Origin: a virus
Lineage: Duplodnaviria; Heunggongvirae; Uroviricota; Caudoviricetes
Length of the DNA stretch: 64,000 bases
Virus record (IMG/VR): IMGVR_UViG_3300012940_000021
Span: 63,912 to 127,911 of that record
Direction: 5' to 3' (one strand)
Every line of letters begins with the position of its first letter. Position 1 is the first letter of the stretch. The notes under the pieces are model-generated. The model was not told the DNA's origin, did no database searches, and saw only the letters and a list, made by a program, of their open reading frames with translations. The translations under genes and the position numbers were made by a program. This document shows positions 826-23,053 of this stretch, one piece after another.

Positions 826-1036
826 GTCGCTCGGAGTGGCGACGGCGGTCTCTACCAGTTCCCCGGCGAGGTTGTAGCGGTGGAGGACCCGCGTCACCAC
901 ATCGCCGCGCTGGCGCATCGTTCGCTTGCAGTCGTCGCAGGCGAACTCGATGAGGTTACCCTCGACCACCTGGGGCTTCCCGCCCGAGAGGAGCAGCTTC
1001 GACAGGAGCCGCCGTGGACCAACGGGGCACCGGATC

Positions 1037-2197: not shown

Positions 2198-2230
2198 GTG
2201 GACCTCCTGGGTCTCTCTTGTTTTCAGAAA

Positions 2231-3120: not shown

Positions 3121-3602
3121 GGCTCGTCCTCGATGGGGTCTTCGATGGGGTCTTCGATGGGGTCTTCGATGGGGTCTTCGCCCGGCCAGTTGTTCTGGGT
3201 CAGCTCCTGGCCGGTCTCGGTGATCTGGACCTCGATGTGATGCCGGGAGGAGAAGCCCACGGCCTCGTCCGGGATGGCTCGGATCTCGAAGGTTCCCTCG
3301 ACCGGAATCTCGTTCTGCTCGTTGGGGATGGCGACGATCCGGTCCCCCGCCTTGATCGGAGCGTAGGGGTAGGTGAACATGACGCCGATCCGGTCTGGAG
3401 CGCGCCCGGCGACCGGAGCCGGTGGGATGTCCTTCCCCTGCCGGATGAAGTTCATGTCGAGGCGGCACTTCAGGAAGTGCAGCATGTCGTTGAGCGCCGG
3501 GTCTTCGTCCGTCGCCTGGGCGTAGTCCATCACGGCCTCGCCGTCGGTCACGACGAGCTGGATGCGCTCGACCCGCACCGCCGAGTTGAACAGGTGGTCC
3601 AT
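3117..3602 (-). CDS. hypothetical protein (161 aa) with C-terminal (EDPI)x4 repeat
   Basis: complete ORF, coupled to neighbours; ends ...EDPIEDPIEDPIEDPIEDEP. Confidence 0.6.
   Translation of the reverse strand: MDHLFNSAVRVERIQLVVTDGEAVMDYAQATDEDPALNDMLHFLKCRLDMNFIRQGKDIPPAPVAGRAPDRIGVMFTYPYAPIKAGDRIVAIPNEQNEIPVEGTFEIRAIPDEAVGFSSRHHIEVQITETGQELTQNNWPGEDPIEDPIEDPIEDPIEDEP
3128..3180. repeat. perfect tandem 12-bp repeat (gatggggtcttc x4) encoding EDPI x4 at the C-terminus of gene 3117-3602
   Basis: directly visible in sequence 3132-3179. Confidence 0.9.
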
Positions 3603-7828: not shown

Positions 7829-9064
7829 TCAGACCGAGTTGACGAACCGCTGGAAGGCGCTCCAGGTCATCTTGCCGGGGATGCCGTCCACTGGACCCGC
7901 GTACCCCCAGTCGCGCTTCAGCCACCGCTGGAAGGCGCTCCAGGTGTACTTGCCCGGCACCCCGTCGATGGGACCGGTGTAGCCCCAGTACTTGGCGAGG
8001 AACCGCTGGAGCGCCTTGTAGGTGTTCGGGCCGGGGATACCGACCACCGGGCCGGTGTAGCCCCAGTCTCGCTTCAGCCAGAACTGGCCGCGCTTCCACG
8101 TGATCGTGCCGGGCACACCGTCGATCTGGGTCCGAGGCAGCGCCTCCTGAGCTGGAGCGGACGGCTTCGGAGGGTTCTTCAGCGCCTTCCCCGCCCGGCC
8201 CATGGCCGCGTAGGTGAGCGGGCCTGGAATGCCGTCCACGACTCCGGTGTAGCCGTACTCGGCCTTCAACCAGCGCTGCGTCGCTCCCCACGAGAGCTTC
8301 GCTGGAAGGCCGTCGATGATGCCGAGGTAGCCCCACTTCTGCTTCAGGAAGGACTGCATCGCCTGCCAGGTCAGGCGACCTGGAATGCCGTCGATGATGC
8401 CGGAGTAGCCCCACTGACGGGCGAGCCAGGTCTGGAGGCCCTTCCACGCCTCGATGCCTGCCGCACCCCCGAGGTTGTAGCCCGCCGTGCCGTCACCTGC
8501 GGGGCCGGTGCCGCCGCCCCCTGGAATCGGCGCTGGAGCCTGGCCCTGGCCGAGGATCTCCCGAGCGCGGTTGACGATCCAGTCCATGTTGAGGCCACCG
8601 GGGCAGGCGGTGGCGTAGGAGGCCCGGTAGCGGGTCCACAGCTCGCGGTGCCCCTCGACGGTCGAGGTCCGGTTGAGGTCGATGCCGTACCGGCGAGCCA
8701 CGTCGGCGCAGAGCTGGGCGACTCGCTCGTGCGCCTTCGAGGACACCGGCCAGTTTGGAGCGCCCGCCTCGTTCTCGATCTCCAGCGTGATGGAGCGGCG
8801 GTCGAAGGCTGCGCCCTTCCCGCCGTCGGTCGAGGACCCTGAAGTCCAGGCGCGGTCCTCCTCGTCCACCACGCCCGTGATGCGGCCCTCGTTCGAGACC
8901 GTGTAGTTGGAGGAGACCTGGCGCGAGCCGGTCACCATCATGTTGATGACCGCATCGTCGTTGGTCCCCGCCTGGTGGTGGAGCGTGATGTGGTCGATGC
9001 GTGCGCCCTGGCGAGCCGAGCGCTGTGGAGAGCGCCGGATCTGGTCGGTGAGTCCCGAGAACAT
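7829..9064 (-). CDS. endolysin: N-acetylmuramoyl-L-alanine amidase (Amidase_2/PGRP-type) with 6-7 C-terminal PG_binding_1-like repeats (411 aa)
   Basis: HITLHH...GHRELW...ACPGG zinc-ligand pattern of T7-lysozyme-type amidases; repeats WGYxGxxDGxPGxxTWxAxQRFL. Confidence 0.85.
   Translation of the reverse strand: MFSGLTDQIRRSPQRSARQGARIDHITLHHQAGTNDDAVINMMVTGSRQVSSNYTVSNEGRITGVVDEEDRAWTSGSSTDGGKGAAFDRRSITLEIENEAGAPNWPVSSKAHERVAQLCADVARRYGIDLNRTSTVEGHRELWTRYRASYATACPGGLNMDWIVNRAREILGQGQAPAPIPGGGGTGPAGDGTAGYNLGGAAGIEAWKGLQTWLARQWGYSGIIDGIPGRLTWQAMQSFLKQKWGYLGIIDGLPAKLSWGATQRWLKAEYGYTGVVDGIPGPLTYAAMGRAGKALKNPPKPSAPAQEALPRTQIDGVPGTITWKRGQFWLKRDWGYTGPVVGIPGPNTYKALQRFLAKYWGYTGPIDGVPGKYTWSAFQRWLKRDWGYAGPVDGIPGKMTWSAFQRFVNSV
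7832..8497. repeat. tandem ~75-81-bp coding repeats (peptidoglycan-binding modules) in the endolysin gene
   Basis: protein-level repeats ...DGIPGxxTWxAxQRWLK... x6-7. Confidence 0.7.
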
Positions 9065-9085: not shown

Positions 9086-9361
9086 TTACTGCGACTGGTA
9101 CTGACTGCGGGCGTCGAGGAGGATCTCCTCCAGGTCGATGCGGTCATCATCGACCGATCCCCACCAGAAGCGGTGATTCGCGGAGCGTGTCTTCTCTTCC
9201 ACGAAGACATCCCAGGGAACGCTCGTGCCCTTGTACCCGACGATCTGCTCGCCCTGCTTCTGGAGCTGCTCGAAGCCCGGCTGGTAGAACACGTCACCGA
9301 CCTCGGAGAAGATTCCGACCGGTTCGCCCTCCAGGGTCTTGTGGATCAAGAACAGGGCCAT
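9086..9361 (-). CDS. hypothetical protein (91 aa)
   Basis: ATG overlapping TGA of upstream gene; complete ORF. Confidence 0.5.
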   Translation of the reverse strand: MALFLIHKTLEGEPVGIFSEVGDVFYQPGFEQLQKQGEQIVGYKGTSVPWDVFVEEKTRSANHRFWWGSVDDDRIDLEEILLDARSQYQSQ

Positions 9362-9657
9362 CAGAACTCCTTCATCGTCGTCTTGATGGCCTTCTCCTGC
9401 TCCGCCGAGAGGGGGGCGAACCGGAAGCGCCGACCCTCGGAGTGGAAGACCCAATCGCCGTCCTCGCGGACCATGATGTCCTCGGGGTAGAACACCATGT
9501 CCTTCATCGGCAGCGCCCAGCCGATGACGACCGTCTTGCCCTGGTCTTCTCCGACCTCGACATCGACCATCTCGAAGTTCGGGCGCTCGCCCTCCTGGGC
9601 GACGATCACACCGTGCGGGAAGGCCCGGTGAAGCTCCTCCTGAGTCACTTCGTCCAC
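9361..9657 (-). CDS. hypothetical protein (98 aa)
   Basis: ORF overlapping 13 nt with the end of the giant gene. Confidence 0.5.
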   Translation of the reverse strand: MDEVTQEELHRAFPHGVIVAQEGERPNFEMVDVEVGEDQGKTVVIGWALPMKDMVFYPEDIMVREDGDWVFHSEGRRFRFAPLSAEQEKAIKTTMKEF

Positions 9658-12600
9658 TGAGCCTTCACCTTCGCAATCGCTGCCTGCAAGTTTACGCGCA
9701 TGACGAACCGATCCTCGATGGGCAGTCCTCGGAGCATGGCGAAGCCGAGCGCCTTCATGCGCTGGATGGCCTCGTTCCGCTTCTCGGCGTTGTCGAAGAC
9801 GAAGATCTCCAGGTGGTCGAGGATCGACATCGCGTTCGGAACCATGGTCTCGTTGCTCGATCCGGTGAAGCTGGTCAGCGCCTTCAGCGGGTCGTACTTG
9901 TTCTGGCTCTGCTGGTCCGTGCGATCACCGAAGCGGTCGCCGGAGAACGAGTAGGTGTCCACCTGAGTGAAGACCGACGGGTTCCAGTAGGCCACGTGCT
10001 TGCCGTAGATCGAGCCGGAGAACTCGACGCTCGCCCCGGTGTGCGCGATGCGCGTGAAGACGCTGTTCGCGCCACCCGTCCCCTGGTCGGAGCCGGAGGA
10101 GGCACCCTGCTTGAAGTAGCCGAGGATGCGCAGACGCTCCTCCGTCGAGAGCATTCCACCCGACGTGATGTAGCGCAGGAGCGAGTCGTCCTTGCCGTTG
10201 TTGCCGATGGCCACCATGTGGCCCTTCTTCAGCACCTGCTCCAGGTCCACATCGATGCGCTCGTAGTACGGCTTGCCCGTGGCCAGCTCCGGGTTGGCGA
10301 GGTCCATGTGGTTGAACTTCGGCATGTGCTTGCCCTGGGCGATGAACGAATCGACGCGATCCTTGCCCCAGGCTTCCTCCGAGATGCTGCGGTAGAACGC
10401 CAGCTCTTCGGTGTCGCTCATGCTCAGGCCGATGCCTTCGATGAGGGTCCAGTCGGTGAGGTTCTCCCCGTTCGGTCCCTTGACCGTCTGCTTCTTGTCC
10501 TTCAGCTTCTTCAGGGCGCTCTTCACCGTGGCTGGGGCGCTCGACTCCGCGTAGGTGAAGATGACGCGCTCCCACATCGCACGCCAGTAGTTCAGCTCCG
10601 CCTGGGTCTCATCGGCCCCCGTGAGGTCGAGGCCCATGAGTTCGAGCTGGGACTGCACCCGAGCGAGCGAGGCTTCCTTGTCCGGCCCGACGAGGCGGAA
10701 CGACACGGTGCCGCGCTGCGACCGAGCGGTGTTCGTGCTCGTGGAGTTGCGGAAGAAGATGACCTCGCCGGACGGCAGCGTGATCCGGTACTCCTTGCCG
10801 GTGTGCCCGGACGTGCCCTCGTCCTTCGAGTTCTCGACCTTCAGACCACCCTCGTTGAGGGTGCCGCCCTTGCCCGCCGCAGACTGGACGGTGTACAGGA
10901 CCTCCTTGACCGCCTCCTGCGGCTCGGCCTCGACGTTGTTGGTCCAGCCGTCCGGCAGGGCGTTGGGGTCCACCGGCAGCGCCCCGACCGAGACCTCGGA
11001 CCCCTTGGACGAGAGCCACTGCCCGTTCGCCAGCTCGGTGTAGGTGATGCCGTCGGGGCTGACGATGATCCGCCCCTCGACCTTCGGAGCGAGGCCCTGG
11101 AAGACCGTGAAGTCGCCCTTGTTGGTCGTGCCTCCCTCGGAGATGGCCGTCTTCACCTTGCCGATCTGGGTGAAGTAGTGGTCCAGCATCATCTTGTACT
11201 GGGAGAGGTACTCCGGCGCGACTCGCTTGCCCGACGGGAACTCCACGTAGTCGGCGTTGCCCTCTGGCTCCAGGTCCGGCTTCCAGAAGGCGGCGTCCGC
11301 CAGGAGGGTCTGCTCCAGGCTGTTGAACGCCGAGATGATGTCGGGGTCGTACTCCTTGTCCACCGAGTTCTTGGTGACGTTCTTGCCCGCCGCCGTGATG
11401 GTGGACTTCCAGTCGTTCGTCGTTGGGAACTGTGCCTGGTTCAGGTAGATCGGCTGGGTGTTGACCGAGTTGACCTGAACCTGCTGCGCCTTCGGCTGGA
11501 GGAAGGCCAGCAGCTTGTTCTGGGCGAGGTCCCCGAGCGTGATCTGGCCCTTGTGCAGCTCCTCCCCGGTCTCGTTCTGCTCGGTCCAGAGCAGCGAGTG
11601 GCCGTTGTGGATCGAGGCGCTTCCGTGCAGCGGGGCGGCTCCCCAGACCTTGGTCTCGGCTGCCTTGTCGAGAACGCCCGGCTCGTCCCAACCGGAGATG
11701 TGCTCCTCGAAGACGGTCGGCGGCTCCTCGGGGAGTCCTCCGAATCCGGCGTCCTGGAAGATCTTGTCCCACATCTGGTCGATCTGCTCGACCAGCTTGC
11801 TCTTGCGGTGGAGGAACGCCTTCACGAGCTGGTCCGCGTTCGCCGGAGCATTGCGGTGCGTGAAGTGGGTCATGTAGTCCGGCACGTCCCAGTTCGTGCG
11901 GAACTCGACCGCCTCGCGGACCATCTGCTCGGCAGCGGCGTCGTCGGACTTCTGGATGCGGGACGCCGCCTTGCGGGCACCCTGGTACGCCTTGACGGCG
12001 GTCTCGTAGTCGATGGTGCCGTTGCGGATCTTGTCGTAGAGCTGGGTGTAGACCAGGGTGGCGTTCGTGTGCGCCGAAGCGTCCCCAGAGATGCCGTTCC
12101 AGTTGCCGTAGACGAAGAACGCCCGCCCCTTGTCGATGCCGACCACTCCGCCGCTCGGCGTCATCAGGAGGTTGTCCGGGTGGGTGTCGTCGTTGTCGAG
12201 CGCCCAGTCGAGCACGTGCTCAGCCGCGATGGCCGCGAGCTGCTTCTCGTTGAGGGTCTCCATTTGGATCTCGCCATCGCCGTTACCGGCGAACGACCCT
12301 ACGTTGTCCACGAAGTTCTGAATGAGTCCCTCGTGACCGTCCTCGGTGGTCGCCATGACCGTCTTGGCCGACTGGAAGCCCCACATCCGAGCCAGCTCGT
12401 TGGCCTTGTGCTCCATCTGGGCGCGGGCCTTCTGGTCCTCGCTGTTCCAGGGCTTGAAGATGTACTTCCGGTCGAACTGGTCCTTGACGAGCCAGACCTC
12501 GTGGCTGCCCTTGTCGATCTGCTCCACCTTGAAGTACTTGGGCTTGTTCAGCTCCTCCAAGTACGCGGCGTGCTTGGCGTCGAAGTAGGCGGCGACGATC

Positions 12601-15600
12601 TCCTCGGACTTGTACTTCGTGCTGTAGTCGGTGTTCGAGGGGTCCCACTCCAGACCCCCGACCGACGTGTCGTAGTTGGAGTAGAACTCCTTGAAGTCCG
12701 GGTCCTGGAAGTGGTCCTTCGCCCAGTCGGTCGTCACGTCGTAGGGGGTGGCCTTCCAGATGCTGCCCTGCGGCCACGGAGTGTCCGGGTTGTTTTCGAA
12801 AACGTGGTCGTAGCTCTTGGCGGGCTGCACGTCGTCGGTCCAGGTCGGAGCATCCGAGAGCGCGGCGTCGCCGTTCTGCTTGCGGACCTGCGCGAGCGCG
12901 GAGAGCTGGTCCACCTTCTCCTTCTGGCCCTGCTTGTGAGCGAGGACCCACTGGCGCTTCTCCGCGTTCGACAGGAACGTCGGGTTCTGCATCTGGGCCT
13001 TGATGAGGTAGTTCTGGATCTCCGGGAGGGATGGCTCGATGCCCGGCGAGGTCCAGTTGCCCTCCACCGGCTCACCTGCCGGAATCTCCCCCTCGACGGC
13101 AGGCCCCCAGGTGATCTGATGCGTGGCCTCGCTGCCCTCGTAGCCGGGGTGCAGGTAGCCCGAGTTGTGGGCCTTCCCCTCCTTGGCAGCCGCCGAGACC
13201 TCGATCTGGTAGAGCGCCTTGAAGTCGCCCTTCTTGAACGCCGCGACCCACTTCTGGCGCTCCCACTTGTCCATCTTGGTCAGGTGCTGGCCGATGATCT
13301 TGCCGTCACCGATGGACGCCGACGCCGCCTTGATGTACGAGCCGAGGGAGTTCTTGTCGTAGGAGTTGACGGTGAGCGCCGCGACCGAGGCGGGGAACTT
13401 GGCGTAGCCCATCTCGTTCCACTCGAAGAGGTCGGCGGCGTTCGCCTCGGGCGTGCTGGTGTCCACCCCGGAGAGGAGGCCGTCCATGGCCTCCTTCAGT
13501 GCCTGCACCGCGTTCTCGGGGGTGTTCTCCGTGAAGCCGTTCTCCGCACGCCACTTGACCCAGAGCGGCTGCTGCCAGAAGACGCCGAGGCTCTTCAGCT
13601 TCTCGCCCATGGCGTAGGCGCTCTCGTCCGTCACCGTGTCGAGGTACTGCCGAGCCTGCATCAGCGACGGGACGGTCGTCTGCGAGCCGAAGAAGAACAC
13701 CGACCCGGTGTAGCCCTCTGGCAGCACGGACATGCCGAACTTGTCCGTGAGCTGCCCCTTCGAGAAGAGCGTGTTGACCTTCTTCTTGTCGAACTCCACC
13801 GGGTCCTGGAGGCCGTGGCTGAGGACGTGCGAGTAGTAGGTGGCCCAGATGTTGGGCTGTTCCTCGGGAGGCTTGACCTCCTCCCCGGTCTTGGGGTCCG
13901 TGAAGTGCCACTTGCCGTCGGAGTGCTTCGTGGCCTCGTAGGGCTGCACGTACTCGCCGTCTTCGTAGTGCGAACTCGTGACCTCGTACTTCGCTCCCAC
14001 GCCTGCGGCGTTCAGCCAATCGGTTGTCGGGTAGCCCCCGATCTTGACCCCGGTCATGGCGGTCACGTCGGTCTTGGGCTTGAAGATCTTCGCCGTGTCG
14101 GTCGAGACCTCGTAAACCGCCGTCTTGGGGTTCTGCGGGCTTCCGGCGAAGTAGGTGCCCGGAGTGAGATCCGACACGACGACGGGCTTCTTCGGCGCGG
14201 CCTTCGCCGTGGGCGACGGGATGTCGTCGGGCATCCCGTGGTACTCCTTCATGCCCTTGTCGTAGTTCGTCTTCACCGCCTTGGCCGTGAGCTTCGACAC
14301 CCCGCCCTTGGTGTTGACGTAGACGCCCGTGCCGTCGGCGGCGACGACCATGTACGCCTTGCCTCCCGGCGAGGAGTACTTGCCGGGCACGATCTCCGGG
14401 TTCTCATTGAGGGTCGGGTTCTCCACCGGGGAGAAGTCCCAGTCGCCCTGCATGGCGTTGAACATCTCGGAGTCGTTCATGAACCCGAAGCCGTTGTCGG
14501 AGAGGTTGTCTCCCGTCTTGGCGTCGTAGATCGTCCAGTGGTCCTCCCCCTCCTTCACCGCGACCATCTGGAAGTCCGTGCCGGGCGCACCGTTCTGAGC
14601 CTTGGTGCCGACCGGAGCGTCCTGGACCACCTTCAACGAGAAGTCACCGTCGTCCTTGCTCAGCTCCTCCTGCTGCTTGTCCTGGAGCGCCGGAGGGGTC
14701 TTCGCGTAGTCGGGCAGCACGTCCGGCTTCGACTCGATGCGGAGGAACCCGTTGTCGATGGCCCCCGAGAAGGAGTCCTCGCCCAGCACATTTCCACTGC
14801 CGTCGTCGGTCCACTGCGCCGCGCTGATCTTGGTGTAGGTGTGCGGAATCCCTCCGGTGCCCTGCCAACGCACCACGGTTCCCACAGGGAGACCCGACAG
14901 CTCTTCGAGGCTCTTCACCTTCGGGTGCTGGATGTCGGTCTCCGTGCGGACCAGCTTGGCCTTCAGGAGGTCGATGAACTTCTGCTTGGTGACCGTCTTG
15001 TCCTTGTCGAAGCCGACGATGGAGTTCGGGTTGAGAGACCCGAGAGCGTTCATCTTCTTGTTCAGCTCGGACTTGAAGTTCTTGCCCTGGAACGATTCCA
15101 GGATGTCGATGGCCTGCTGGACCTGGGACATCGTGAACTCTCCGCCGTCCATGCCCTGCACGCCCGTGCTCTTCGGCGTCTTCGAGCCGATCCAGACCTT
15201 GGGGGCGTTCTCCTCCTCGACGCTCGTCCCTTCCTCGATGCCGATGGAGTCCTTCAGGTACTTGATGACGGCAGGCTTGGCCTTCAGATCCGGGTACTTG
15301 TTGAGCGCGGCGACCTTCAAGGACTCCTGGTTCTCGGCGCTCTTCAGCGGGTTGCTGTCCGGCAGCGCCTTCAGGCCGTAGCTGACGTGGAAGGACGAGT
15401 GCTCCTCCAAAGCCTTGTACGCCTCCGCGATCTGGATGGAGGACATGGCCGGAGCACCTGGCCAGAGCTGCTTGTCCTTGGCTCCGAAGCTGCTCTCCGG
15501 GGCCTTCGGCGCGACGTAGCGCAGATTCCCCGCCGCGACGGCATCGCCCATGTCGCCGGGCGTGAACGCCAGGTTCGGCCACTTCGGATCGTCGGCGGGA

Positions 15601-18600
15601 GCCTTCCAACCCTCCTCGGTCTTGTCCACGAAGTTGAGGAAGTTGCCCGCCTGGTCGAACATCGCCAGCCGCTGTCCCACCGGGAAGGCGTTGACGTGGG
15701 CCATCTTCGTGATGGCGTCGCCCTCGGCGTAGCCGAACTCGTTGACCTCGCTGGGGGACGGGACGTTCGGCTCCAGGGCAGGAAGCGAGAAGACGGTGAA
15801 CTTCTGGCTCTTGGCCGAGCCGGAGAGCTGCGACGCCGCGTAGACGTTGCCCCCCGGCGTGAGGAAGGCCCCGTTGTCGAGCTTGGTGTAGTAGGTCTTC
15901 GACCCGTCCTTCTTGGTGTACTCCAGCTTCGTGCCTGGCAGCAGCGACTCCAGGTCCTCGACGCTCGTGATGGTGTGACCCTCGCCCCACTCCCAGGGAG
16001 CCTGCTCCTCAGCCGACTGGCTCTGGAGCGGAGCCGGGACGTAGTAGTGCTTGTTCCCCCCTGGAGCGAAGAAGATGTCGTTGAGGGTGAGCATCCCGCC
16101 GTCCAGTCCAGACGGAAGCAGGGCGCTCCACTCGTCGCCGTCCTGGGCCTTCGTGTAGGTGATGATCTTGCCCTTGCCGGTGACCTCGAAGATCTGGTCC
16201 CCCGGCTTCGGGGCGTGGGTCACGATGTCCTTGTTGACCAGGACCGCGTTGGTGGGCACCCCCTCAGGCAGGTCGTCGTCCGTCGCCGGAGCCTCCGACT
16301 CGCTCGTCTGGTCGGGCACCAGATGCGGAGACTCCTCCGGCAGCGGGAGCGAGTAGTGCTCCGCGATGTACTTGCGACGGGCGAGGAGGGTGTTCGCCAT
16401 GGACTCGTCCATGCCGTACTCCGAGACCATCTCCTGGATGCGCTCGGGCGACAGGTTGACGATCCGCTGAGCACCGTCCAGCTCCTCGGCGTAGGTCATG
16501 TCCGATCCGAAGACCGCCGCCTTCTTGCCGGTGCGGTAGCTCTCCAGCTCGGTGACGCTCGGACCGAAGTCGGACCCCTTCGCGCTGCCCATGGCGCGGT
16601 ACTTCAGCGCGCCGCCGTTGTCGATGCGCCACGGGTTGCCGTCCTTGTCCGTGAGCACGTTGTCCCACGACAGTCCGAACACATCCCAGTTGGCCAGCCA
16701 GGCGTCGATGGCGAAGTCGCGTCGGACCTTGGAAAGCCACACCTGGTCGTTGAGCCGGGCCTGCATGTCCTGCTTGCCGTCCACGATCTTGGAGTAGATC
16801 TGGCCATCCGAGGCGACATCGACCTCGGGGGCGTTCACGCCCAGCTCGCGGTAGAGCGCGTTGGCCAGCGCCTCGTTGTTGCCGTGATCGGCGGTCTGCG
16901 GCTTCTTGACGTAGTACTTCGCCGGGCCGTCCGGCGTCGGCAGCTCGTAGAGGCCCCCCGGATTCGAGCCGCTCTGTCCACCGATCTTCTTCGCGCCCTC
17001 GTCCGTGATGAGACCGTGGCTGGGGATCGGCTCCTGAGTGGCCGGTGCCGGACCAGCCGTCAGGGCAGCGCCGTACTGCGCCAGCTCCTCATTGGAGTAG
17101 GTGTTGCCGTTCGCCCACGACAGCCACTGCCCGTTCGACTGCTTGGTGAGAGTCACGCCGTCGAGGTTCACCTGAGCGCCGGTCGGCGCGATGGCCAGGT
17201 GGTTGCGCTTCTGATCGACGGTCAGGTCCGGCGAGTTGAAGATCGGGGAGAAGCCCGAGATCGGCTCTCCAGGGTCGGCGGGCTGCTCCGGCTCCTGGGT
17301 CCCCGTCGGGGTCACGAGCGTGAGCTGATCGCGCATCGCGTACATGACGCCGTGGGACACAGGCTTCTTCTTGCCGCCCTGCGTCCAGGTGCCGTTCTCC
17401 TGCTTGCGGAACGGGACCTGACCCTCCTCCGGGATGAGCTTCGAGCCGACCGGAGCGTTCACCAGTGCGGTCGAGAACTCGACATCCGTCATCTCGGCCA
17501 ACGGCTTGTCGGCAGCCGGAGCCTCCTGAGGCTGCTGCTTGGTCGAGTTGCCCTTGAAGGCGTAGAGCTGCTCCGGCTGGTACTCGCCCTCGGAGGCCAT
17601 GACCGCCGTCATCAGATCTTCTTCGGTGACTCCGGCCTGCGGGTGGGTGAGGTTCTTCCACGAGCCGTCCGGCTGCTTCTCCACGAGGTCCGCCGCCTCA
17701 TAGTGCGGGGCGTCGCCGTCGGCGGTGTTCTCCTCGAAGTCCGGGTCGTAGCCGATCAGAATCTTGTCGCCCGGCTGGGCGTTCGTGATGTCGTCCTGGG
17801 TCGCCTCGGCGGTGTAGTCGTAGTCGCCGGGGAAGAGGTAGTGCGGGGATTCCTCGCTCAGGATGTCGAGCGGGGCCATGTCCTCGTGCCAGATGAGATC
17901 CGTCGAGTTGACGTTCGGCTCGTCCTCATCGACCTCCGGTGGCAGCGGCTTCGACTGCTTGGTGGCGTGGATGTAGACCTTCTCGGCACCACCGTCCACG
18001 ACCATCGCGTTCATGGCGACCTGGCCGAACCAGTCCTCGTCGTCATCGACGTTGGACCAGATGGCGAGGCCGTCCCCGGAGTCGGTCAGTTCGTACTCGG
18101 AGACCATCGCTCCGTTGTCGAAGGCCACGAGCACGCGGTCACCGATGGTGGAGACCTGCATGTGGCCGGGCGTGGCCAGCTCGGTGTAGTCGCCCTCGCC
18201 GGGCACGAGCTTGGAGGTCGAGCGGGGCTTGTCCCGCTTCGGCAGCTCCGGCGCGGGGCCATCTCCGATGTCCGGCGCGAGGATGGCGACGTTCTCCGAG
18301 GTCAGGTCGTTGCCGGTCTTGCTGGACTTCCAGGTCCCGTCCTCGTTCTTCGTGAGCGTGGCCTCGCTGTCCACCATGTAGATCTGGTGGCCGACCTCCG
18401 CGCTGTCGAGGAGTCGCTGAACCTCCGCCACGTTGGAGTTGCCGTTGATGGCGGAGATGTCCTTCGGCTTCGGACGCTTCGGCTTGGCCGGTGCCGGAGA
18501 GGGCTGCTCGGGCTGGGGTCCGTCCGCCAGCCCCTCCGGGCCGATGGCAGCCAGGAGCGCGTTGGTCGAGACCACGACCCCCGTGCTGCTGTCCCAGTCG

Positions 18601-20075
18601 CCGTCTTCACGCTTGGTGAACTCCCGGTCGCCATTCGTCTGGTGGATGACGTGACCGACTTCAGCCGCGTCGAGCAGCTCCTTGGTGTCGGCTTCGGAGA
18701 GGTCGGGACCGAGCGCGCTGAGGTCCGGCTGCTCAGTGGACTCCTGCGGAGCGGAGGAGTCCCCACCGTCGAGTGGAGAGCCAGCCGGAGCCTTCGGCTC
18801 CTTGCCCTCCTTGGCGATCTTCACGTCGCTGTTGTTGACCGCGATGGCGGACTTGAACGACTCGGCGTCGAGCTGGCCCCCGAACTGATTCGTCCAGGCG
18901 TCGCCCTCCTTGTCCTTGGTCCAGTTGGTCTTGTTTCCAGCGGGCGACGTGTACGTGACCTGAGCGCCGGGCAGCGCCTTGTCGATCCAGTCGTTCGTCG
19001 GGGTGTCGCCCACGGAGACAGGCGCGGGCTTGGAGGCTGCCTCTCCGTCGAGCGGATTCACCGACTTGCCATCGAGCGGGTTGTACTCCGGCTCCTCGGG
19101 AGCACCGATGGAGAGGATGCTCTTCAGGTGCGCGAGGTTGTCCGCGCTGACGCCCTGAGTAGTGCCCTCGTCCTGTCCGTCGAAGGTGCCTTCCGAGTTC
19201 TTCACGAAGGGGCGATCCGCCACCATGACGGTGACCCCCTCGGGAAGCCCTTCGAGCGCCTGCAACGCCTCCTCGAAGTTCATCTCCCCGAAGTTCATCG
19301 CCTCGGTGTTGGCGAAGGTCTCCTCGACCACGGAGATGTCGTCGTCGCTCGTGTCGGGCACGAGGTCACCGGAGTCGTAGAGGTCCTGGAGATCGGCGTC
19401 CTTCAGTCGCACCCCAAGATCCACGTGCTCCCAGGTGTCGTCCGCGAGCTTCTTGAACTGAGGGGTGCCTCGACTGTCCACGAGGGTCGCGCCCACCTTC
19501 AGGGCGTTGAGGCTGACCGACCCGCTCGTGGCCTCGAACTCCTCGACGGAGTAGTTCTCGTCGCCTTCGAAGTCCGGTCCGAACTTGTTTTGGAAAACAG
19601 CGGTGAGAGTCTTCGGGATCTCGATCTCGCCAGCCTCGTTGAAGGCGTGAACGGACCCGTCGGGGGTGACGACGTAGGCCATGCCCGGCTGAGAGGCCGG
19701 ACGGATGAGCTTGGAGCCGTTGGGCGCGGTGTACTTCGCCTTGCCGATGCTGAAGTGCTTGTTGCCCGTGAGCGTGGACTTCTTGATCTTGAGCTTCAGC
19801 TTCGGCTTCTCGGCAGGCTTCGGCGCGTTCTTCTCGGAGGCTGCCTTGCCGGAGATGGTGCCCTGCGACATGAAGCCGCCTGCGGCGCTGCCCGAGGAGA
19901 TGGCTCCCTGCGGAGGGGTGAGGCCCTGGGCTGCGGCCTCGGCGTTCTTGGCGTCGATGATGTCCTTGGTGATCGGAGCGCCGATGGGCAGCCCGTAGAA
20001 CTGAGCACCCTCCGGGGTGCGCACTCGACGGACGGCCAGCTCCAGGACCTGGGACTCGAACTGTTCGACGCTCAC
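9645..20075 (-). CDS. giant multidomain protein (~3,476 aa from GTG at 20075; longest ORF extends to 20273 = 3,542 aa). Candidate virion-packaged 'polyvalent' protein: N-terminal capsid-targeting-like motif, >=10 copies of a ~35-40-aa repeat, two HipA/APH-like kinase catalytic-loop motifs
   Basis: uninterrupted 10.6-kb frame directly downstream of MuF; GTG with GGAG SD after conserved motif+palindrome; motifs HVLDWALDNDDTHPDNLLMT...GGVVGIDKG and AIDAWLANWDVFGLSWDNVL...RIDNGGAL. Confidence 0.8.
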   Translation of the reverse strand: MSVEQFESQVLELAVRRVRTPEGAQFYGLPIGAPITKDIIDAKNAEAAAQGLTPPQGAISSGSAAGGFMSQGTISGKAASEKNAPKPAEKPKLKLKIKKSTLTGNKHFSIGKAKYTAPNGSKLIRPASQPGMAYVVTPDGSVHAFNEAGEIEIPKTLTAVFQNKFGPDFEGDENYSVEEFEATSGSVSLNALKVGATLVDSRGTPQFKKLADDTWEHVDLGVRLKDADLQDLYDSGDLVPDTSDDDISVVEETFANTEAMNFGEMNFEEALQALEGLPEGVTVMVADRPFVKNSEGTFDGQDEGTTQGVSADNLAHLKSILSIGAPEEPEYNPLDGKSVNPLDGEAASKPAPVSVGDTPTNDWIDKALPGAQVTYTSPAGNKTNWTKDKEGDAWTNQFGGQLDAESFKSAIAVNNSDVKIAKEGKEPKAPAGSPLDGGDSSAPQESTEQPDLSALGPDLSEADTKELLDAAEVGHVIHQTNGDREFTKREDGDWDSSTGVVVSTNALLAAIGPEGLADGPQPEQPSPAPAKPKRPKPKDISAINGNSNVAEVQRLLDSAEVGHQIYMVDSEATLTKNEDGTWKSSKTGNDLTSENVAILAPDIGDGPAPELPKRDKPRSTSKLVPGEGDYTELATPGHMQVSTIGDRVLVAFDNGAMVSEYELTDSGDGLAIWSNVDDDEDWFGQVAMNAMVVDGGAEKVYIHATKQSKPLPPEVDEDEPNVNSTDLIWHEDMAPLDILSEESPHYLFPGDYDYTAEATQDDITNAQPGDKILIGYDPDFEENTADGDAPHYEAADLVEKQPDGSWKNLTHPQAGVTEEDLMTAVMASEGEYQPEQLYAFKGNSTKQQPQEAPAADKPLAEMTDVEFSTALVNAPVGSKLIPEEGQVPFRKQENGTWTQGGKKKPVSHGVMYAMRDQLTLVTPTGTQEPEQPADPGEPISGFSPIFNSPDLTVDQKRNHLAIAPTGAQVNLDGVTLTKQSNGQWLSWANGNTYSNEELAQYGAALTAGPAPATQEPIPSHGLITDEGAKKIGGQSGSNPGGLYELPTPDGPAKYYVKKPQTADHGNNEALANALYRELGVNAPEVDVASDGQIYSKIVDGKQDMQARLNDQVWLSKVRRDFAIDAWLANWDVFGLSWDNVLTDKDGNPWRIDNGGALKYRAMGSAKGSDFGPSVTELESYRTGKKAAVFGSDMTYAEELDGAQRIVNLSPERIQEMVSEYGMDESMANTLLARRKYIAEHYSLPLPEESPHLVPDQTSESEAPATDDDLPEGVPTNAVLVNKDIVTHAPKPGDQIFEVTGKGKIITYTKAQDGDEWSALLPSGLDGGMLTLNDIFFAPGGNKHYYVPAPLQSQSAEEQAPWEWGEGHTITSVEDLESLLPGTKLEYTKKDGSKTYYTKLDNGAFLTPGGNVYAASQLSGSAKSQKFTVFSLPALEPNVPSPSEVNEFGYAEGDAITKMAHVNAFPVGQRLAMFDQAGNFLNFVDKTEEGWKAPADDPKWPNLAFTPGDMGDAVAAGNLRYVAPKAPESSFGAKDKQLWPGAPAMSSIQIAEAYKALEEHSSFHVSYGLKALPDSNPLKSAENQESLKVAALNKYPDLKAKPAVIKYLKDSIGIEEGTSVEEENAPKVWIGSKTPKSTGVQGMDGGEFTMSQVQQAIDILESFQGKNFKSELNKKMNALGSLNPNSIVGFDKDKTVTKQKFIDLLKAKLVRTETDIQHPKVKSLEELSGLPVGTVVRWQGTGGIPHTYTKISAAQWTDDGSGNVLGEDSFSGAIDNGFLRIESKPDVLPDYAKTPPALQDKQQEELSKDDGDFSLKVVQDAPVGTKAQNGAPGTDFQMVAVKEGEDHWTIYDAKTGDNLSDNGFGFMNDSEMFNAMQGDWDFSPVENPTLNENPEIVPGKYSSPGGKAYMVVAADGTGVYVNTKGGVSKLTAKAVKTNYDKGMKEYHGMPDDIPSPTAKAAPKKPVVVSDLTPGTYFAGSPQNPKTAVYEVSTDTAKIFKPKTDVTAMTGVKIGGYPTTDWLNAAGVGAKYEVTSSHYEDGEYVQPYEATKHSDGKWHFTDPKTGEEVKPPEEQPNIWATYYSHVLSHGLQDPVEFDKKKVNTLFSKGQLTDKFGMSVLPEGYTGSVFFFGSQTTVPSLMQARQYLDTVTDESAYAMGEKLKSLGVFWQQPLWVKWRAENGFTENTPENAVQALKEAMDGLLSGVDTSTPEANAADLFEWNEMGYAKFPASVAALTVNSYDKNSLGSYIKAASASIGDGKIIGQHLTKMDKWERQKWVAAFKKGDFKALYQIEVSAAAKEGKAHNSGYLHPGYEGSEATHQITWGPAVEGEIPAGEPVEGNWTSPGIEPSLPEIQNYLIKAQMQNPTFLSNAEKRQWVLAHKQGQKEKVDQLSALAQVRKQNGDAALSDAPTWTDDVQPAKSYDHVFENNPDTPWPQGSIWKATPYDVTTDWAKDHFQDPDFKEFYSNYDTSVGGLEWDPSNTDYSTKYKSEEIVAAYFDAKHAAYLEELNKPKYFKVEQIDKGSHEVWLVKDQFDRKYIFKPWNSEDQKARAQMEHKANELARMWGFQSAKTVMATTEDGHEGLIQNFVDNVGSFAGNGDGEIQMETLNEKQLAAIAAEHVLDWALDNDDTHPDNLLMTPSGGVVGIDKGRAFFVYGNWNGISGDASAHTNATLVYTQLYDKIRNGTIDYETAVKAYQGARKAASRIQKSDDAAAEQMVREAVEFRTNWDVPDYMTHFTHRNAPANADQLVKAFLHRKSKLVEQIDQMWDKIFQDAGFGGLPEEPPTVFEEHISGWDEPGVLDKAAETKVWGAAPLHGSASIHNGHSLLWTEQNETGEELHKGQITLGDLAQNKLLAFLQPKAQQVQVNSVNTQPIYLNQAQFPTTNDWKSTITAAGKNVTKNSVDKEYDPDIISAFNSLEQTLLADAAFWKPDLEPEGNADYVEFPSGKRVAPEYLSQYKMMLDHYFTQIGKVKTAISEGGTTNKGDFTVFQGLAPKVEGRIIVSPDGITYTELANGQWLSSKGSEVSVGALPVDPNALPDGWTNNVEAEPQEAVKEVLYTVQSAAGKGGTLNEGGLKVENSKDEGTSGHTGKEYRITLPSGEVIFFRNSTSTNTARSQRGTVSFRLVGPDKEASLARVQSQLELMGLDLTGADETQAELNYWRAMWERVIFTYAESSAPATVKSALKKLKDKKQTVKGPNGENLTDWTLIEGIGLSMSDTEELAFYRSISEEAWGKDRVDSFIAQGKHMPKFNHMDLANPELATGKPYYERIDVDLEQVLKKGHMVAIGNNGKDDSLLRYITSGGMLSTEERLRILGYFKQGASSGSDQGTGGANSVFTRIAHTGASVEFSGSIYGKHVAYWNPSVFTQVDTYSFSGDRFGDRTDQQSQNKYDPLKALTSFTGSSNETMVPNAMSILDHLEIFVFDNAEKRNEAIQRMKALGFAMLRGLPIEDRFVMRVNLQAAIAKVKAQWTK

Positions 20076-20087
20076 GACGCTCCAAAA

Positions 20088-20128
20088 TCTTCTGGCCAGA
20101 AGAATGTCTGCTCTGTGATATCGGCCTC
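20088..20128 (-). promoter_or_regulatory. left-arm conserved motif copy 5 (AGAGGCCGATATCACAGAGCAGACA) followed by 16-bp perfect palindrome TCTTCTGGCCAGAAGA, upstream of the giant gene
   Basis: seen in sequence. Confidence 0.6.
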
Positions 20129-20349
20129 TACTCGTCTTGCCGAACGGCCCCTGGAATCGCCTCGACCTTCTCCACAACCTCCGAGATCTCACCTTCGAGC
20201 AGGAGACCGCTTCGATAGACCGTCGTGGCGTCGAGTCCACCGAAGCGGTAGCTCTTTTCGGTGGTTCGAGCATCGAGAACTACGGCCAGCAGCCCAGCCG
20301 CTGCCGACGGCACCGAGTCGAAGAAGAATCTTGTGGTCGAACTAGCCAT
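20128..20349 (-). CDS. hypothetical protein (73 aa)
   Basis: ORF overlapping 8 nt with MuF stop. Confidence 0.45.
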   Translation of the reverse strand: MASSTTRFFFDSVPSAAAGLLAVVLDARTTEKSYRFGGLDATTVYRSGLLLEGEISEVVEKVEAIPGAVRQDE

Positions 20350-21145
20350 CGTCGCCTCCCCGACGCACGAACGAGATGATTCGCTGGAGGGTCCTCACGA
20401 CGGCCCGGAAGATCATGCCGGGCATCCTCTTCACGTCCTCGGTGGTCATCGTGAGCGCACCTGGCCCTGGAGAGTCGATGTCGAGTGTCTCCAGGGTGTT
20501 CGCCAGGGTCACGATGAGGATGGCGAGGTAGCACTGGCACCGAGGATGGCGAGGAGGTCCGAGCAGGTCCCCGTAGACCTTCAGCCGGTTGTCACCGGTC
20601 GGGAACTCCTCGTGCAAGCCGACCTCGGTGCCGTGGAGTGCGCGGCAGTACTCGCAAGGCGTGTTGTTGACGAAGTTCGCCAGCCAGATCTTGCGGACTC
20701 GGTAGCCGAAGTCCTCCAGCTCGGTGTACGCCTGGATCATCGCGTCGGTGTAGCCTCGCTGGGCTGCGACCCCGGCGCTGTGCTGCATCCGCAGGATGGC
20801 TCGACGGCGAGCCTTCTCGTCGCGGCTGCTCTTCTTGTACTCACGGAGATTCCGGCGCACATCCGCGAGAAGATTCTGGAGGTACTCGGAGTTGAAGATC
20901 TCCGTGGGCGTCCATCCGGTGAGGCCGGACTCTCGGACCGCATGCGCAGAGGCCACGGCTGCGCTCGCTCGGTAGGCGCTGCGCACGATGGCTTCGAGCT
21001 GCCAGCGCACCGACTGCGGGCTGAAGCGCCCCTGATCCCACGCATCGAAGGTCGCGGCAATCTGCTGCCGAACGGTGGCCTCCAGGGCGCGGGCAGCGAG
21101 ATGAGCCTGACGGGCAGCCCGGAGTTGTTCCGCGAAGCTCGCCAT
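20342..21145 (-). CDS. MuF-like head morphogenesis (minor capsid) protein (267 aa)
   Basis: C-terminal PCEYCRALHG...HPRCQCYL cysteine pattern of phage F-like/SPP1 gp7 family; position after portal. Confidence 0.75.
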   Translation of the reverse strand: MASFAEQLRAARQAHLAARALEATVRQQIAATFDAWDQGRFSPQSVRWQLEAIVRSAYRASAAVASAHAVRESGLTGWTPTEIFNSEYLQNLLADVRRNLREYKKSSRDEKARRRAILRMQHSAGVAAQRGYTDAMIQAYTELEDFGYRVRKIWLANFVNNTPCEYCRALHGTEVGLHEEFPTGDNRLKVYGDLLGPPRHPRCQCYLAILIVTLANTLETLDIDSPGPGALTMTTEDVKRMPGMIFRAVVRTLQRIISFVRRGGDDG

Positions 21146-21507
21146 CAGCCCTCCTCGGGCTTCTGCTCCTCCGCCGCGTCAGCCAGCTCCGAGAGCACTG
21201 GGGTGCCGGGACGAGCCTCTCGGAACTGCTTCACCGCATTGGTGAACTCGCTCTGGATGTCCTTCATGAGGGCCGTGTTGCCCGTGCGCTTGGCCTCCAC
21301 GAACTGAGCCTGGAGAGACTTCAGACGCTCGATGGTGACCGGACGAGCGCCGCCTTCTGGAGCCTCCTCTCCACCCCCGATTGGAGACCCGATGGGCTTG
21401 CCATACAGACGAGCGCCCGCATCCGTCGCCACTCGACGGACCGCCAGGCTCACGAGCGAGGAAAGCTCCTCGCGCTCAGTTGGAATCGACGGCATCGAGC
21501 AGGTCAC
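21145..21507 (-). CDS. hypothetical protein (120 aa) sharing an N-terminal ~30-aa motif with the giant protein
   Basis: SLVSLAVRRVATDAGARLYGKPIGSPI vs giant VLELAVRRVRTPEGAQFYGLPIGAPI (17/31 identical). Confidence 0.6.
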   Translation of the reverse strand: MTCSMPSIPTEREELSSLVSLAVRRVATDAGARLYGKPIGSPIGGGEEAPEGGARPVTIERLKSLQAQFVEAKRTGNTALMKDIQSEFTNAVKQFREARPGTPVLSELADAAEEQKPEEG

Positions 21508-23053
21508 CCGCCATCCTCATCAGCTCCGAGTAGGCGTCCAGCGGCTGAGAGAGCTGCATCGCCTGCTCTTCGAAGTCCCGGAGGGCCTGGTCCTCTGGAG
21601 AGGCCGGAGCTGGAGGCCCGCCTGGAGCCGGGGCCACTGGACCGCCAGGGAGTGGCTGACCGTCGGGACCCAGGGCCGGGACGGCTCCGCCTGCGGCAGC
21701 GGCGAGCTGCGCCTGAGCGGCTGCCTGCTCCTCCTCGATCCGACGATCCACTTCGTCGTAGTCGATCTCCAGGCCCATCTCCTCGGCCACGACCTCCTCC
21801 AGCGCCCGCATGAACTCGGGGGTCGCGTTGACGCTCTGACCCGCCGAGGCGAGCTTGTCGAAGGTGGCCGAGATGGCCTGCTTCTGCTCGTCGGTGAGCT
21901 TGCCCCAGGTGAAGGTCGGGTACTTGCCCCCGTCGAAGTTGAAGTCGATGAGCTGCGGGATGATGTAGTGGTTGATCTGGTTGGCGATGTCGTCCATGAT
22001 GGCGCGGAGCATCAGGATGAACATGTCGTCGCCCGGCTGGGCGAAGTTCACCATCGAGCCTTCGCCCTGGCCCGCGCCGGTCTCCTTGTCCATGAAGCCA
22101 GCGAGCATCGACTTCGACATCTGGTTGTTGTGGTGGTTGATGAGGTTCAGGTACTCGAAGGACCCGGCCTCCTTCAGCAGCTCCACCTTGAAGCCGTCCG
22201 GCACCATCATCCACTGGGCCAGGGCGAGGTTCGCCAGGTTCTGCGCGAACTCGCGCTTCGCACCCATCGAGGCGTTGGGCGGAACGGTGCCGATGCGGGT
22301 GCCGACGGCGGCTCGCTGCGCGGCCAGGTGGGCGGTGTAGTAGAGCTTGACCTTCTTGTCGTAGTGGTAGAAGGCGCTCTGGAAGAACGAGACCCCGTAG
22401 AACTTCCGCTCCTCCTCCTGGGCCGCGTAGTAGAAGCAGTACTCCGGCTCGATGTACACGTCGGTGACCTTGCCGCCGTTGGTGGCCCGCTGGCGGATGC
22501 CCGCGAAGCCACCGCCCTTGTCGGTGACGAAGGTGACGGTCTCGCTCGGGCGGTAGGCGAGCTTCTTCAGGGTGATCTTGCCCGCGAGCGGGCCGAACTC
22601 TGGACGCCAGAAGACCTTCTCGAAGGCGGCGAATCCATCGAACAGAGCGCCGAGGAGCTGACTCATGAAGCGGTGGAAGGTGACGCTCATGCCGCCCTGA
22701 GCTGGAGGCGTGTGGAAGACCTGCTCGATGAACTCGGCCTCCTTCTCCCCGCCGTCGGCGGGAACGAAGGTCGCCGTGCTGAGCGCGGCACGAATGGGCA
22801 GCGAGAGGAGTCGGAACAGCGCTCGCGCCTGACCGTCCATACGCCGCATCGTCACGAGCTGTCGGACAGTCGGCCCCATCTCCTCCGACTCGTCGCGGAG
22901 GATCTCCTGAAGCTCCTCGTCCACGCTCTTCTTCAGGCCGACCGAGAACGGACGGAATGGAGTCGTGAACGCGAGGTTCTGATCGACGCCCTGCTCGACG
23001 CCAAGCTCCGGGACCTCGGTCTTCTCCGGCGCAGTTACGTCTTCACCAGCCAC
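21476..23053 (-). CDS. portal protein (525 aa)
   Basis: size and position directly downstream of terminase large subunit; overlaps TerL stop. Confidence 0.7.
   Translation of the reverse strand: MAGEDVTAPEKTEVPELGVEQGVDQNLAFTTPFRPFSVGLKKSVDEELQEILRDESEEMGPTVRQLVTMRRMDGQARALFRLLSLPIRAALSTATFVPADGGEKEAEFIEQVFHTPPAQGGMSVTFHRFMSQLLGALFDGFAAFEKVFWRPEFGPLAGKITLKKLAYRPSETVTFVTDKGGGFAGIRQRATNGGKVTDVYIEPEYCFYYAAQEEERKFYGVSFFQSAFYHYDKKVKLYYTAHLAAQRAAVGTRIGTVPPNASMGAKREFAQNLANLALAQWMMVPDGFKVELLKEAGSFEYLNLINHHNNQMSKSMLAGFMDKETGAGQGEGSMVNFAQPGDDMFILMLRAIMDDIANQINHYIIPQLIDFNFDGGKYPTFTWGKLTDEQKQAISATFDKLASAGQSVNATPEFMRALEEVVAEEMGLEIDYDEVDRRIEEEQAAAQAQLAAAAGGAVPALGPDGQPLPGGPVAPAPGGPPAPASPEDQALRDFEEQAMQLSQPLDAYSELMRMAGDLLDAVDSN

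Follow-up and report, generated by a model that had tools for sequence, protein, structure and literature searches.

A giant protein gene in the head module of a tailed phage: two kinase-like domains, a DarT-like fold and a probable role as a head-packaged effector

What does a protein of almost 3,500 residues do when its gene lies among those that build a phage head? The question is raised by a 64,000-nucleotide stretch of DNA (the window, positions 63,912 to 127,911 of the IMG/VR Caudoviricetes record IMGVR_UViG_3300012940_000021), in which one uninterrupted minus-strand open reading frame (ORF) of about 10.6 kb, 9645..20273, lies in the head module. A reading made from the letters of the window alone (the sequence-only reading) had proposed that the product, hereafter the giant, is packaged in the virion and injected into the host as a polyvalent protein. 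Polyvalent proteins are phage and plasmid polypeptides of 2-15 domains, often linked to MuF or portal genes and predicted to be injected, and their domains include ADP-ribosyltransferases (ARTs), kinases, GNATs and peptidases (Iyer, Burroughs, Anand, de Souza, Aravind 2017; PMC5512222). Our analysis leads to a related answer: the giant is probably a head-packaged, host-delivered multi-enzyme effector of the polyvalent kind, its packaging, ejection, activity and substrates being the inferred parts of this reading. The evidence that we bring to it is the conserved slot of the gene, its rapid divergence, the effector-type domains that occur in the slot, the conserved catalytic residue sets and a docking-like N-terminal motif.

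The giant is a real gene. Its frame is intact as described before, all peptide strings quoted in the sequence-only reading were found in it, its GC content at the three codon positions is 0.60/0.42/0.92, and its amino-acid composition is ordinary. The mirror ORF on the plus strand (9813..20345, 3,510 residues) carries its high GC (0.92) at position 1 and has an impossible composition (18% Leu, 16% Val, 13% Arg, and rich in Gly as well), and is therefore an antisense shadow; long antisense ORFs are expected at 65% GC. This shadow is an artefact of the GC content of 0.92 at third codon positions (GC3) and would mislead gene callers that rank by ORF length. Two lengths had been proposed for the protein, of which the 3,476-residue version is right and the 3,542-residue version, starting at ATG 20273, is wrong. 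The true start is GTG 20075 (stop codon 9645-9647), because residue 1 of the closest homologue, P0035, aligns by BLAST with ORF residue 67, and because the 66 extra upstream codons would overlap a conserved 73-residue gene (20128-20349). Residue numbers given here are those of the ORF and run to 3542, the GTG start being residue 67. The protein has a mass of 378 kDa, an isoelectric point of 4.8, a net charge of -183 and no cysteines.

To describe the domains, we begin at the C-terminal end. AlphaFold modelled residues 2343-3542 with a predicted local distance difference test (pLDDT) value of 88.4 and a predicted template modelling (pTM) score of 0.69, and fold searches covered residues 925-3542. 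The searches with this core retrieved phosphatidylinositol 4-kinase (PI4K) type IIα with a score of 14.9 (211 residues, 18% identity), CtkA (14.0), VPS34, PI3K and mTOR (~13), actin-fragmin kinase (12.8), MavQ, CotH and Fam20 (11.5-12.4), the HipA family (11.4-11.5) and APH(2'') (9.0). Similarity in sequence is low, with only 11-18% identity to PI4K type IIα, Helicobacter pylori CtkA and actin-fragmin kinase, and the Pfam family PI3_PI4_kinase (PF00454) matched residues 2625-2720 with 19.3 bits (E 1.2e-3), under its gathering threshold of 27.1. In the domain so defined (kinase 2), K2607, D2696-x4-N2701 and D2714 (in the motif IDKG) are at least 90% conserved in both family alignments, and E2621 in one of the two. 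Because the members of these alignments are only 25-64% identical to the query, this conservation argues for catalysis. The spacing from the Asn to the Asp is 13 residues, which is that of canonical protein kinases (PKA numbering).

The other kinase-like segment, kinase 1, was compared with the PDB by Foldseek, and the top matches were all protein kinases, the best target TM-scores being those of CtkA (0.45-0.47) and RioK1 (0.44). Its motifs (a GSNPGG loop, K1123, E1134, D1197, N1205 and D1218) agree with the consensus of its own family, GSNPGG...YVK...NExLA...DAWLANWDVxGLxxDN...RIDxGGAL. The kinase-1 alignment was left out of structure prediction, MAFFT having misplaced repeat fragments in it. 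Both segments have the bilobal architecture of kinases, and the models confirm for both a predicted protein-kinase-like fold in which the Lys/Glu/Asp/Asn/Asp set is conserved. Whether the two are paralogous, as the sequence-only reading had it, depends on the method of comparison. BLAST detected no similarity between kinase 1 and kinase 2, but their profiles were aligned by hhalign over 199 columns with a probability of 97.4% (E 1e-11), which brought together the Gly loop, the Lys, the Glu, the catalytic loop (3 residues longer in kinase 1), the DxG motif and the C-terminal helices. In addition, the kinase-1 hidden Markov model (HMM) matched kinase 2 in ~25 family members (E 1e-5 to 1e-12). 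BLAST alone would thus wrongly reject the paralogy, which the profile comparison rescued: as judged from their profiles, the two kinases are distant homologues. The same reading had called them HipA/APH/UbiB-type. The kinase-like fold stands, whereas the subtype does not, since HipA and APH(2'') score lower than PI4K type IIα and the HipA family provides neither a HipA_C profile match nor the closest fold match for the kinases of the giant.

The same fold searches retrieved DarT enzymes with the core: Escherichia coli DarT1 (8baq) with a score of 10.7 (151/208 residues, root-mean-square deviation 3.2 Å), Thermosipho DarTG (7omu) with 9.8, Thermus DarT (7omv) with 9.4 and Mycobacterium tuberculosis DarT (7yk3) with 9.0. 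The core thus contains an ART fold, at the level of fold only. By elimination and by the order of its secondary-structure elements, the DarT-like fold is placed in the last ~230 residues of the protein, where it probably ends the core. In this part both alignments show at least 90% conservation of R3380, R3382, S3392, D3396, R3408, D3446 and E3475, and one of the two also of N3474 and D3486. The statement that the rest of the protein matches nothing recognisable is overturned by this fold. The best viral structural match to the core was a 1,340-residue "ADP-ribosyltransferase" of Mycobacterium phage Onyinye (1,154 aligned columns). DarT enzymes act on bases of single-stranded DNA (PMC11543638), and in the excerpts of PMC9503650 (Iyer et al. 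2022) available here the only viral relatives of DarT-like ARTs named are the ORF28 family of arthropod DNA viruses.

The core defines a large family, and the giant is not the unique protein without recognisable relatives that it had seemed to be. An exhaustive HMMER search with residues 2343-3542 retrieved at least 953 cluster representatives at E <= 1e-3, 209 of them at E <= 1e-30. Most representatives are 2,500-4,200 residues long and carry the core match at their C-terminus, and a second class is a short form of ~1,250-1,350 residues. All ten representatives whose records were consulted came from metagenomes (one is in NCBI/ENA too) and were named no more than "hypothetical protein". Other searches returned little: tblastn against ~50,000 deposited phage genomes gave domain-sized matches only; megablast against phages found nothing at the nucleotide level; a PDB sequence search, by phmmer with the whole giant and then with profiles of alignments A3 and A4, found nothing meaningful; a third, word-indexed homologue search with alignment A4 found only 2 proteins; NCBIfam had no match; PHROGs gave a single marginal family of unknown function; and Pfam gave only weak PI3_PI4_kinase and chance LRR_10 matches. 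When the giant was compared by BLAST with 150 family representatives, the core was covered by nearly all of them, short form included, and a mid block (residues ~1450-2100) and the N-terminal block by ~40 each. Residues ~400-1450 are variable and covered by few representatives (500-1400 by few homologues), and the insertion that carries kinase 1 is present in only 6 of ~150.

Kinase 1 has relatives elsewhere. By tblastn and homologue searches they include gp77/78 of Gordonia Forzavirus phages, encoded just after the portal gene; a 3,289-residue giant of Actinomycetia phage DSL-LC01; proteins that carry the annotation "ADP-ribosyltransferase" and belong to phages of Pseudomonas, Aeromonas and Yersinia; and ~30 proteins of metagenomic or cellular origin, among them several fusions to NUDIX, 2H/LigT, ART or DUF2213. 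These fusions hint at a tie to NAD/ADP-ribose chemistry. One homologue, P0028 (kinase-1-like plus ART), is encoded in an unrelated sheath-and-tube (myovirus-like) locus, before the scaffold gene and after two unannotated ORFs that trail the terminase gene. At L024 6001-7548 and L022 6001-7500, kinase-1-type domains were observed in two settings: a 515-residue kinase-ART protein in an unrelated sheath-and-tube head module, and NUDIX-kinase fusions in bacterial chromosomes (Geminicoccus roseus, beside transposase genes, and Paraburkholderia).

The giant also carries repeats of a small module of ~55 residues. Alignment of nine hand-picked copies showed a helix, an xVGxxI strand, a hairpin, a TKxxDGxW strand and a second helix, the modules being joined by linkers rich in Pro, Glu and Lys. 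Self-BLAST showed no internal repeats, and an HMM was needed to reveal them. With leave-one-out profiles the omitted copy was found at 1-39 bits, compared with at most 8.3 for shuffles, ~5 copies then being individually significant. Iterated three times across the family, with 635 instances, the profile gave the giant 13 copies that score at or above 11.7 bits and three marginal ones, the best of 300 shuffles reaching 9.5 bits, so that the earlier count of "more than 10 copies" holds. The module HMM also matched 76 of ~150 family representatives, and in the AlphaFold models several copies form small units of strands and helices with high confidence, between linkers of low confidence. A putative second short repeat, of helical type, was seen at residues ~1612-1677, 1715-1782 and 2200-2270 (about 13464-15439; examples SSIQIAEAYKALEEH, MSQVQQAIDILESFQG and PENAVQALKEAMDGL), and can be seen in P0001 and P0002 as well, close to the N-terminus.

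At the other end of the protein lies a short motif with the consensus RxVRTxxGxxxYGxPIG. It recurs in the ~120-residue protein encoded beside the portal gene (which shares RRVxTxxGAxxYGxPIGxPI with the giant), within the C-terminal extension of a 665-residue portal protein (L003, 8331-8435), in gp14 and gp17 of Microbacterium phage Magritte, and in gp79 of Gordonia phage Mareelih, which consists of the motif, small repeats and a C-terminal ART. Among 112 giant homologues, a strict regular expression located it within the first 44 residues of at least 22 and, in one other, at residue 163. A docking signal would be expected to be common to cargo-like proteins and to a segment attached to the portal, and we take the motif as a candidate for one.

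The genomic position of the giant was analyzed next to these domains. Pfam and PHROGs give the minus-strand order weak terminase-like gene, Portal_Mu, 120-residue ORF, MuF-like gene, 73-residue ORF and giant, followed by two small ORFs, an Amidase_2/PG_binding endolysin, a Mu-like protease/scaffold, a 130-residue ORF with a weak match to HDPD (decoration protein) and capsid E. The order in the sequence-only reading (portal, small protein, MuF, giant, lysin, scaffold, capsid) was right in sequence and had missed small ORFs; the giant had also been placed directly downstream of MuF, and it is near it, with the conserved 73-residue gene intervening. In 15 IMG/VR loci, one Logan contig and Magritte (L003 and L005-L019, plus Magritte as L020), the giant, a short form or other cargo sits between the MuF-like gene and the protease/scaffold gene, the recurrent order being MuF-like gene, 73-residue ORF, giant or short form, Mu-like protease/scaffold, decoration-like protein and capsid. 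The IMG/VR loci were found with an alignment as query, and a single-protein query found none. Across these loci the capsid is 50-82% identical and the core only 26-47%, and the giant therefore evolves much faster than its structural neighbours. Such divergence of the core would be expected for a conflict protein.

Table 1. Coordinates of the giant, its parts and its neighbours (window positions unless a locus is named; residues in ORF numbering)
Feature	Position	Strand	Basis or remark
Giant coding sequence, 3,476 residues	9645..20075	-	GC3 0.92, P0035 alignment, overlap with 73-residue gene
Conserved N-terminal block, motif and first small modules (residues 67-400)	19074..20075	-	~40/150 representatives (BLAST)
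N-terminal short motif VRRVRTPEGAQFYGLPIGAPIT (residues 81-102)	19968..20033	-	candidate docking/capsid-targeting motif
First module array	17049..19733	-	variable part of the family
First-array copies, residues 252-301, 335-391, 425-480, 529-586, 619-673, 824-895, 932-986, 1023-1075			marginal copy 181-226
Kinase-like domain 1 (residues ~1084-1314)	16332..17024	-	AlphaFold pLDDT 95-98; Foldseek
Second module array and helical segments	13845..16241	-	includes mid block; module profile, model units
Second-array copies, residues 1437-1490, 1788-1845, 1880-1931, 2082-2143			marginal copies 1354-1394, 1524-1581
Conserved C-terminal core (residues ~2150-3542)	9648..13826	-	nearly all 150 listed members, short form included
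Kinase-like domain 2 (residues ~2578-2842)	11748..12542	-	core model; conserved residues
Lone module copy within core (residues 3065-3110)	10944..11081	-	profile; four strands, model fragment residues 722-755
DarT-like ART-fold domain, probable site (residues ~3317-3542)	9648..10325	-	boundary inferred
Portal protein (Portal_Mu)	21476..23053	-	Pfam E 2.2e-35, PHROG E 4.9e-44
Small ~120-residue protein, portal/MuF interval	21145..21507	-	bears the N-terminal motif of the giant as LAVRRVATDAGARLYGKPIGSPI
MuF-like minor head protein, 267 residues	20342..21145	-	57% identical to Magritte gp15
Conserved 73-residue ORF, MuF/giant interval	20128..20349	-	tblastn matches in L007, L009, L013, Magritte gp16
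Small ORF 3' of giant, 98 residues	9361-9657	-	GC3 0.90, overlaps stop of giant by 13 nt
Second small ORF 3' of giant, ~91 residues	~9086-9361	-	conserved in L005-L009, L011, L012
Amidase_2 + PG_binding_1 endolysin within head module	7829-9064	-	between giant and protease/scaffold
GT4-type glycosyltransferase downstream of head genes	1037-2197	-	weak similarity to "GT4-conflict" (PF20706)
Magritte gp17, 1,991 residues, annotated hypothetical	L020 7049-13024		slot of the giant

Among the neighbours listed in Table 1, neither the 73-residue ORF nor the two small ORFs downstream of the giant had a Pfam match; the latter two may be immunity or chaperone genes. The endolysin had no tblastn match in the related loci, where the corresponding interval is only ~600-700 bp. 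The position of the GT4-type glycosyltransferase is conserved in L003.

The occupants of the slot differ between phages. Magritte (OR553905, 133 kb) is the closest cultured relative, with a capsid 81.6% and a MuF protein 57% identical to those of the window. Its gp17 occupies the identical slot, is 33% identical to the giant over 167 residues in the N-terminal motif region and shows some repeat-like similarity, but it is without the C-terminal kinase and ART-like core; a weak, near-threshold match to a GNAT (Acetyltransf_1) was found at its residues 1189-1286. With the same slot and a different cargo, Magritte indicates that the slot exchanges cargo. The family member P0112 carries an N-terminal ADPrib_exo_Tox domain (E 2.5e-13). 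We also count P0028 and Mareelih gp79 among the effector-type occupants. In the Mycobacterium abscessus prophage prophiFSQJ01-1, gp54 (1,170 residues, "minor capsid and ADP-ribosyltransferase fusion protein") combines MuF (VG15), a kinase-2-like domain and a VIP2-type ART (PF03496), and residues ~2589-2837 of the giant match it by tblastn (E 4e-7). Like the giant, this protein and that of Onyinye lie in the slot after the portal and pair a kinase-2-like with an ART-type domain. Unlike the giant, gp54 has MuF fused N-terminally, a VIP2 ART, no repeat array and a third of the size.

Proteins of this kind, that is polyvalent, MuF-linked effectors, are already known, and it is the architecture of the giant that differs. 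Like them it is a phage-encoded multi-domain polypeptide near portal, MuF and head-packaging genes, and it joins host-modifying enzyme types in one chain (two kinase-like domains, one ART-fold domain and repeats). The kinases of polyvalent proteins are C-lobe-less Ser/Thr/Tyr kinases (PMC5512222), whereas those of the giant are PI4K-II/CtkA-like and have C-terminal helices; the ART fold of the giant is DarT-like and not of the Alt/VIP2 or N4-ART types. MuF and portal fusions to ART, NUDIX and 2H domains are described in PMC9503650, and in contrast to the MuF fusions the giant is a separate gene. The array of 13-16 modules and the distinct N-terminal motif set it further apart from known polyvalent and MuF effectors. 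It also departs from DarTG, a two-gene toxin-antitoxin pair with a DarG/NADAR partner: the DarT-like domain of the giant ends a giant head-module protein, and no such partner was recognised by Pfam among the small flanking ORFs.

Capsid-enclosed enzymes that are delivered with the DNA are exemplified by T4 Alt and the N4 virion RNA polymerase (vRNAP), for which packaging has been demonstrated. The giant has no sequence or fold relationship to either of them; the N4 vRNAP is of similar size (~3,500 residues; PMC7302621). The same source reports that Microbacterium cluster EK and Burro phages have a virion-associated protein of >4,400 residues, seen by sodium dodecyl sulfate-polyacrylamide gel electrophoresis, with a role unknown (PMC7302621). 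Those proteins resemble the giant in being enormous, fast-diverging and, as with its nearest cultured relative, from Microbacterium phages, but their genomes (~54 kb) are of a different type from that of the window phage, and tblastn of the giant against the phage collection gave no match to EK or Burro phages.

We therefore propose the following course of events for a head-packaged effector. A chain of small, independently folding modules on flexible linkers carries three enzyme-type domains, namely an inserted CtkA/Rio-like kinase, a conserved PI4K-II/CtkA-like kinase whose catalytic set is intact, and a C-terminal DarT-like ART fold. The N-terminal motif would dock the giant at the portal/MuF complex and lead to its enclosure in the procapsid, and at infection the chain would thread through portal and tail with the DNA and then refold in the host. 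Alt, MuF-toxin fusions and the N4 vRNAP are thought to pass the portal and tail with the DNA in this way. Inside the host, the targets modified may be proteins, nucleic acids or signals derived from nucleotides, with ATP as the cosubstrate of the kinases and NAD+ as that of the ART-like domain, and with takeover or counter-defence as the outcome. The beads-on-a-string build, the acidic charge and the absence of cysteines agree with threading and refolding, without proving them.

Several observations weigh against this proposal. The motif is present in only 1 of 33 short-form homologues and therefore cannot be a family-wide packaging signal, and a protein of 378 kDa must unfold to pass the tail tube. 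The assignment of the neighbour to MuF is weak, its Pfam match to Phage_Mu_F (E 9e-4, 20.4 bits) lying under the 29.6-bit cut-off, although PHROGs place it in head-morphogenesis and minor-head families (down to E 8.7e-9). LPD or other polyvalent signature domains were not found in the giant with Pfam, and NCBIfam was empty; a macro/NADAR-type immunity gene was not recognised with Pfam among the small neighbouring ORFs. As for the ART, Pfam on 11 C-terminal domains gave no DarT or ART family match, and the PDB profile search with the C-terminal core gave no ART match. A reading of FTR...SFS...NE as the R-S-E set of a VIP2-type ART was rejected, the hhalign probability with the ART of Mareelih gp79 being 0.8%, and so was a residue mapping onto Thermus DarT (R51, E160; probability 0.09%), and we claim no catalytic equivalence. 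The ART assignment is thus one of predicted fold, and equivalence of catalytic residues could be inferred from it at most.

A bolder form of the proposal, which we put forward only tentatively and consider doubtful, is that the core is an unrecognised two-enzyme "warhead" (a PI4K-II/CtkA-like kinase with a DarT-like nucleic-acid ART) that an actinobacterial phage lineage delivers by way of the capsid, with the motif as a portable capsid tag. The ADP-ribosylation of DNA or RNA bases that bacteria use against phages would then be turned on the host, or would mark the phage's own DNA, and the portal/MuF complex would read the motif and load cargo of up to ~380 kDa. The NUDIX, 2H and ART fusions of the kinase-1 relatives would allow that these "kinases" act on NAD- or ADP-ribose-derived molecules and not on proteins.

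Other functions can be weighed against the head-packaged effector. The giant could be a late-expressed enzyme that is not injected and acts in the producing cell or in the capsid. Its targets might, for example, be the DNA or head proteins of the phage itself while packaging is under way, or host factors at a late stage of infection. Such an enzyme would fit with the late expression of head-module genes, with the action of DarT on single-stranded DNA bases (PMC11543638) and with a place close to the portal, as suggested by the shared motif and the portal fusion of L003; we nevertheless regard it as unlikely, because the size, the beads-on-a-string build and the divergence relative to the capsid better fit a conflict effector, analogous MuF-ART fusions are interpreted as injected (PMC5512222, PMC9503650), and the small neighbouring ORFs included no recognisable partner gene related to modification. 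Quite unlikely, in our view, is a mainly structural role as an internal core, ejectosome component or external decoration fibre with scaffolding or inactive enzyme-like domains. The 13-16 small modules are indeed similar to repetitive domains found in structural and adhesion proteins, and the EK/Burro protein is a virion-associated giant (PMC7302621), but the at least 90% conservation of K2607, D2696, N2701 and D2714 (E2621 in one alignment) argues for catalysis, the enzyme-bearing core and not the repeats is the most conserved part of the family, and other slot occupants are enzymes (ADPrib_exo_Tox in P0112, the weak GNAT in Magritte gp17).

A polymorphic toxin of MuF type, carried by a temperate phage or a phage-derived particle for competition between bacteria, is improbable. 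In the MuF toxins of temperate phages it is the C-terminal toxin domain that varies (PMC5576092), and an M. abscessus prophage does carry a related kinase-like-ART protein; the giant shows the reverse layout, with a conserved C-terminus and a variable N-terminal and central part, none of the small neighbouring ORFs was recognised as immunity-like, and the genome of the nearest cultured relative, a Microbacterium phage, measures 133 kb, while the viral contigs that hold the related loci reach 133 kb. The idea of a tape measure, tail fibre or N4-like vRNAP, for which size alone (similar to that of the N4 vRNAP) would speak, is effectively refuted (the sequence-only reading had already argued against the tape measure) by the position between MuF and prohead protease/scaffold in every related locus, by the lack of any transmembrane-like hydrophobic segment in the giant (maximum Kyte-Doolittle 19-residue window 1.28) and of any such family in Pfam or PHROGs, and, for the polymerase, by fold searches of residues 925-3542 that gave kinases and DarT and no polymerases.

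With the head-packaged effector as the favoured reading, the analysis goes beyond the first one in two respects, the C-terminal core that joins a kinase with a DarT-like fold and the size of the family. At least 953 representatives, ten of which were looked up and had no functional name, constitute a blind spot in a region that is among the best studied in phage genomes, and for the giant itself Pfam, PHROGs and NCBIfam gave no significant match. A handle on how phage heads choose their cargo is offered by the motif that the giant has in common with the portal-adjacent protein, a portal fusion and a Gordonia ART protein, and Magritte, which has the same slot, MuF and capsid with another cargo, is a natural cargo-swap experiment. 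If the DarT-like domain is active, it would represent a phage-borne use of a chemistry that is known mainly from bacterial anti-phage defence.

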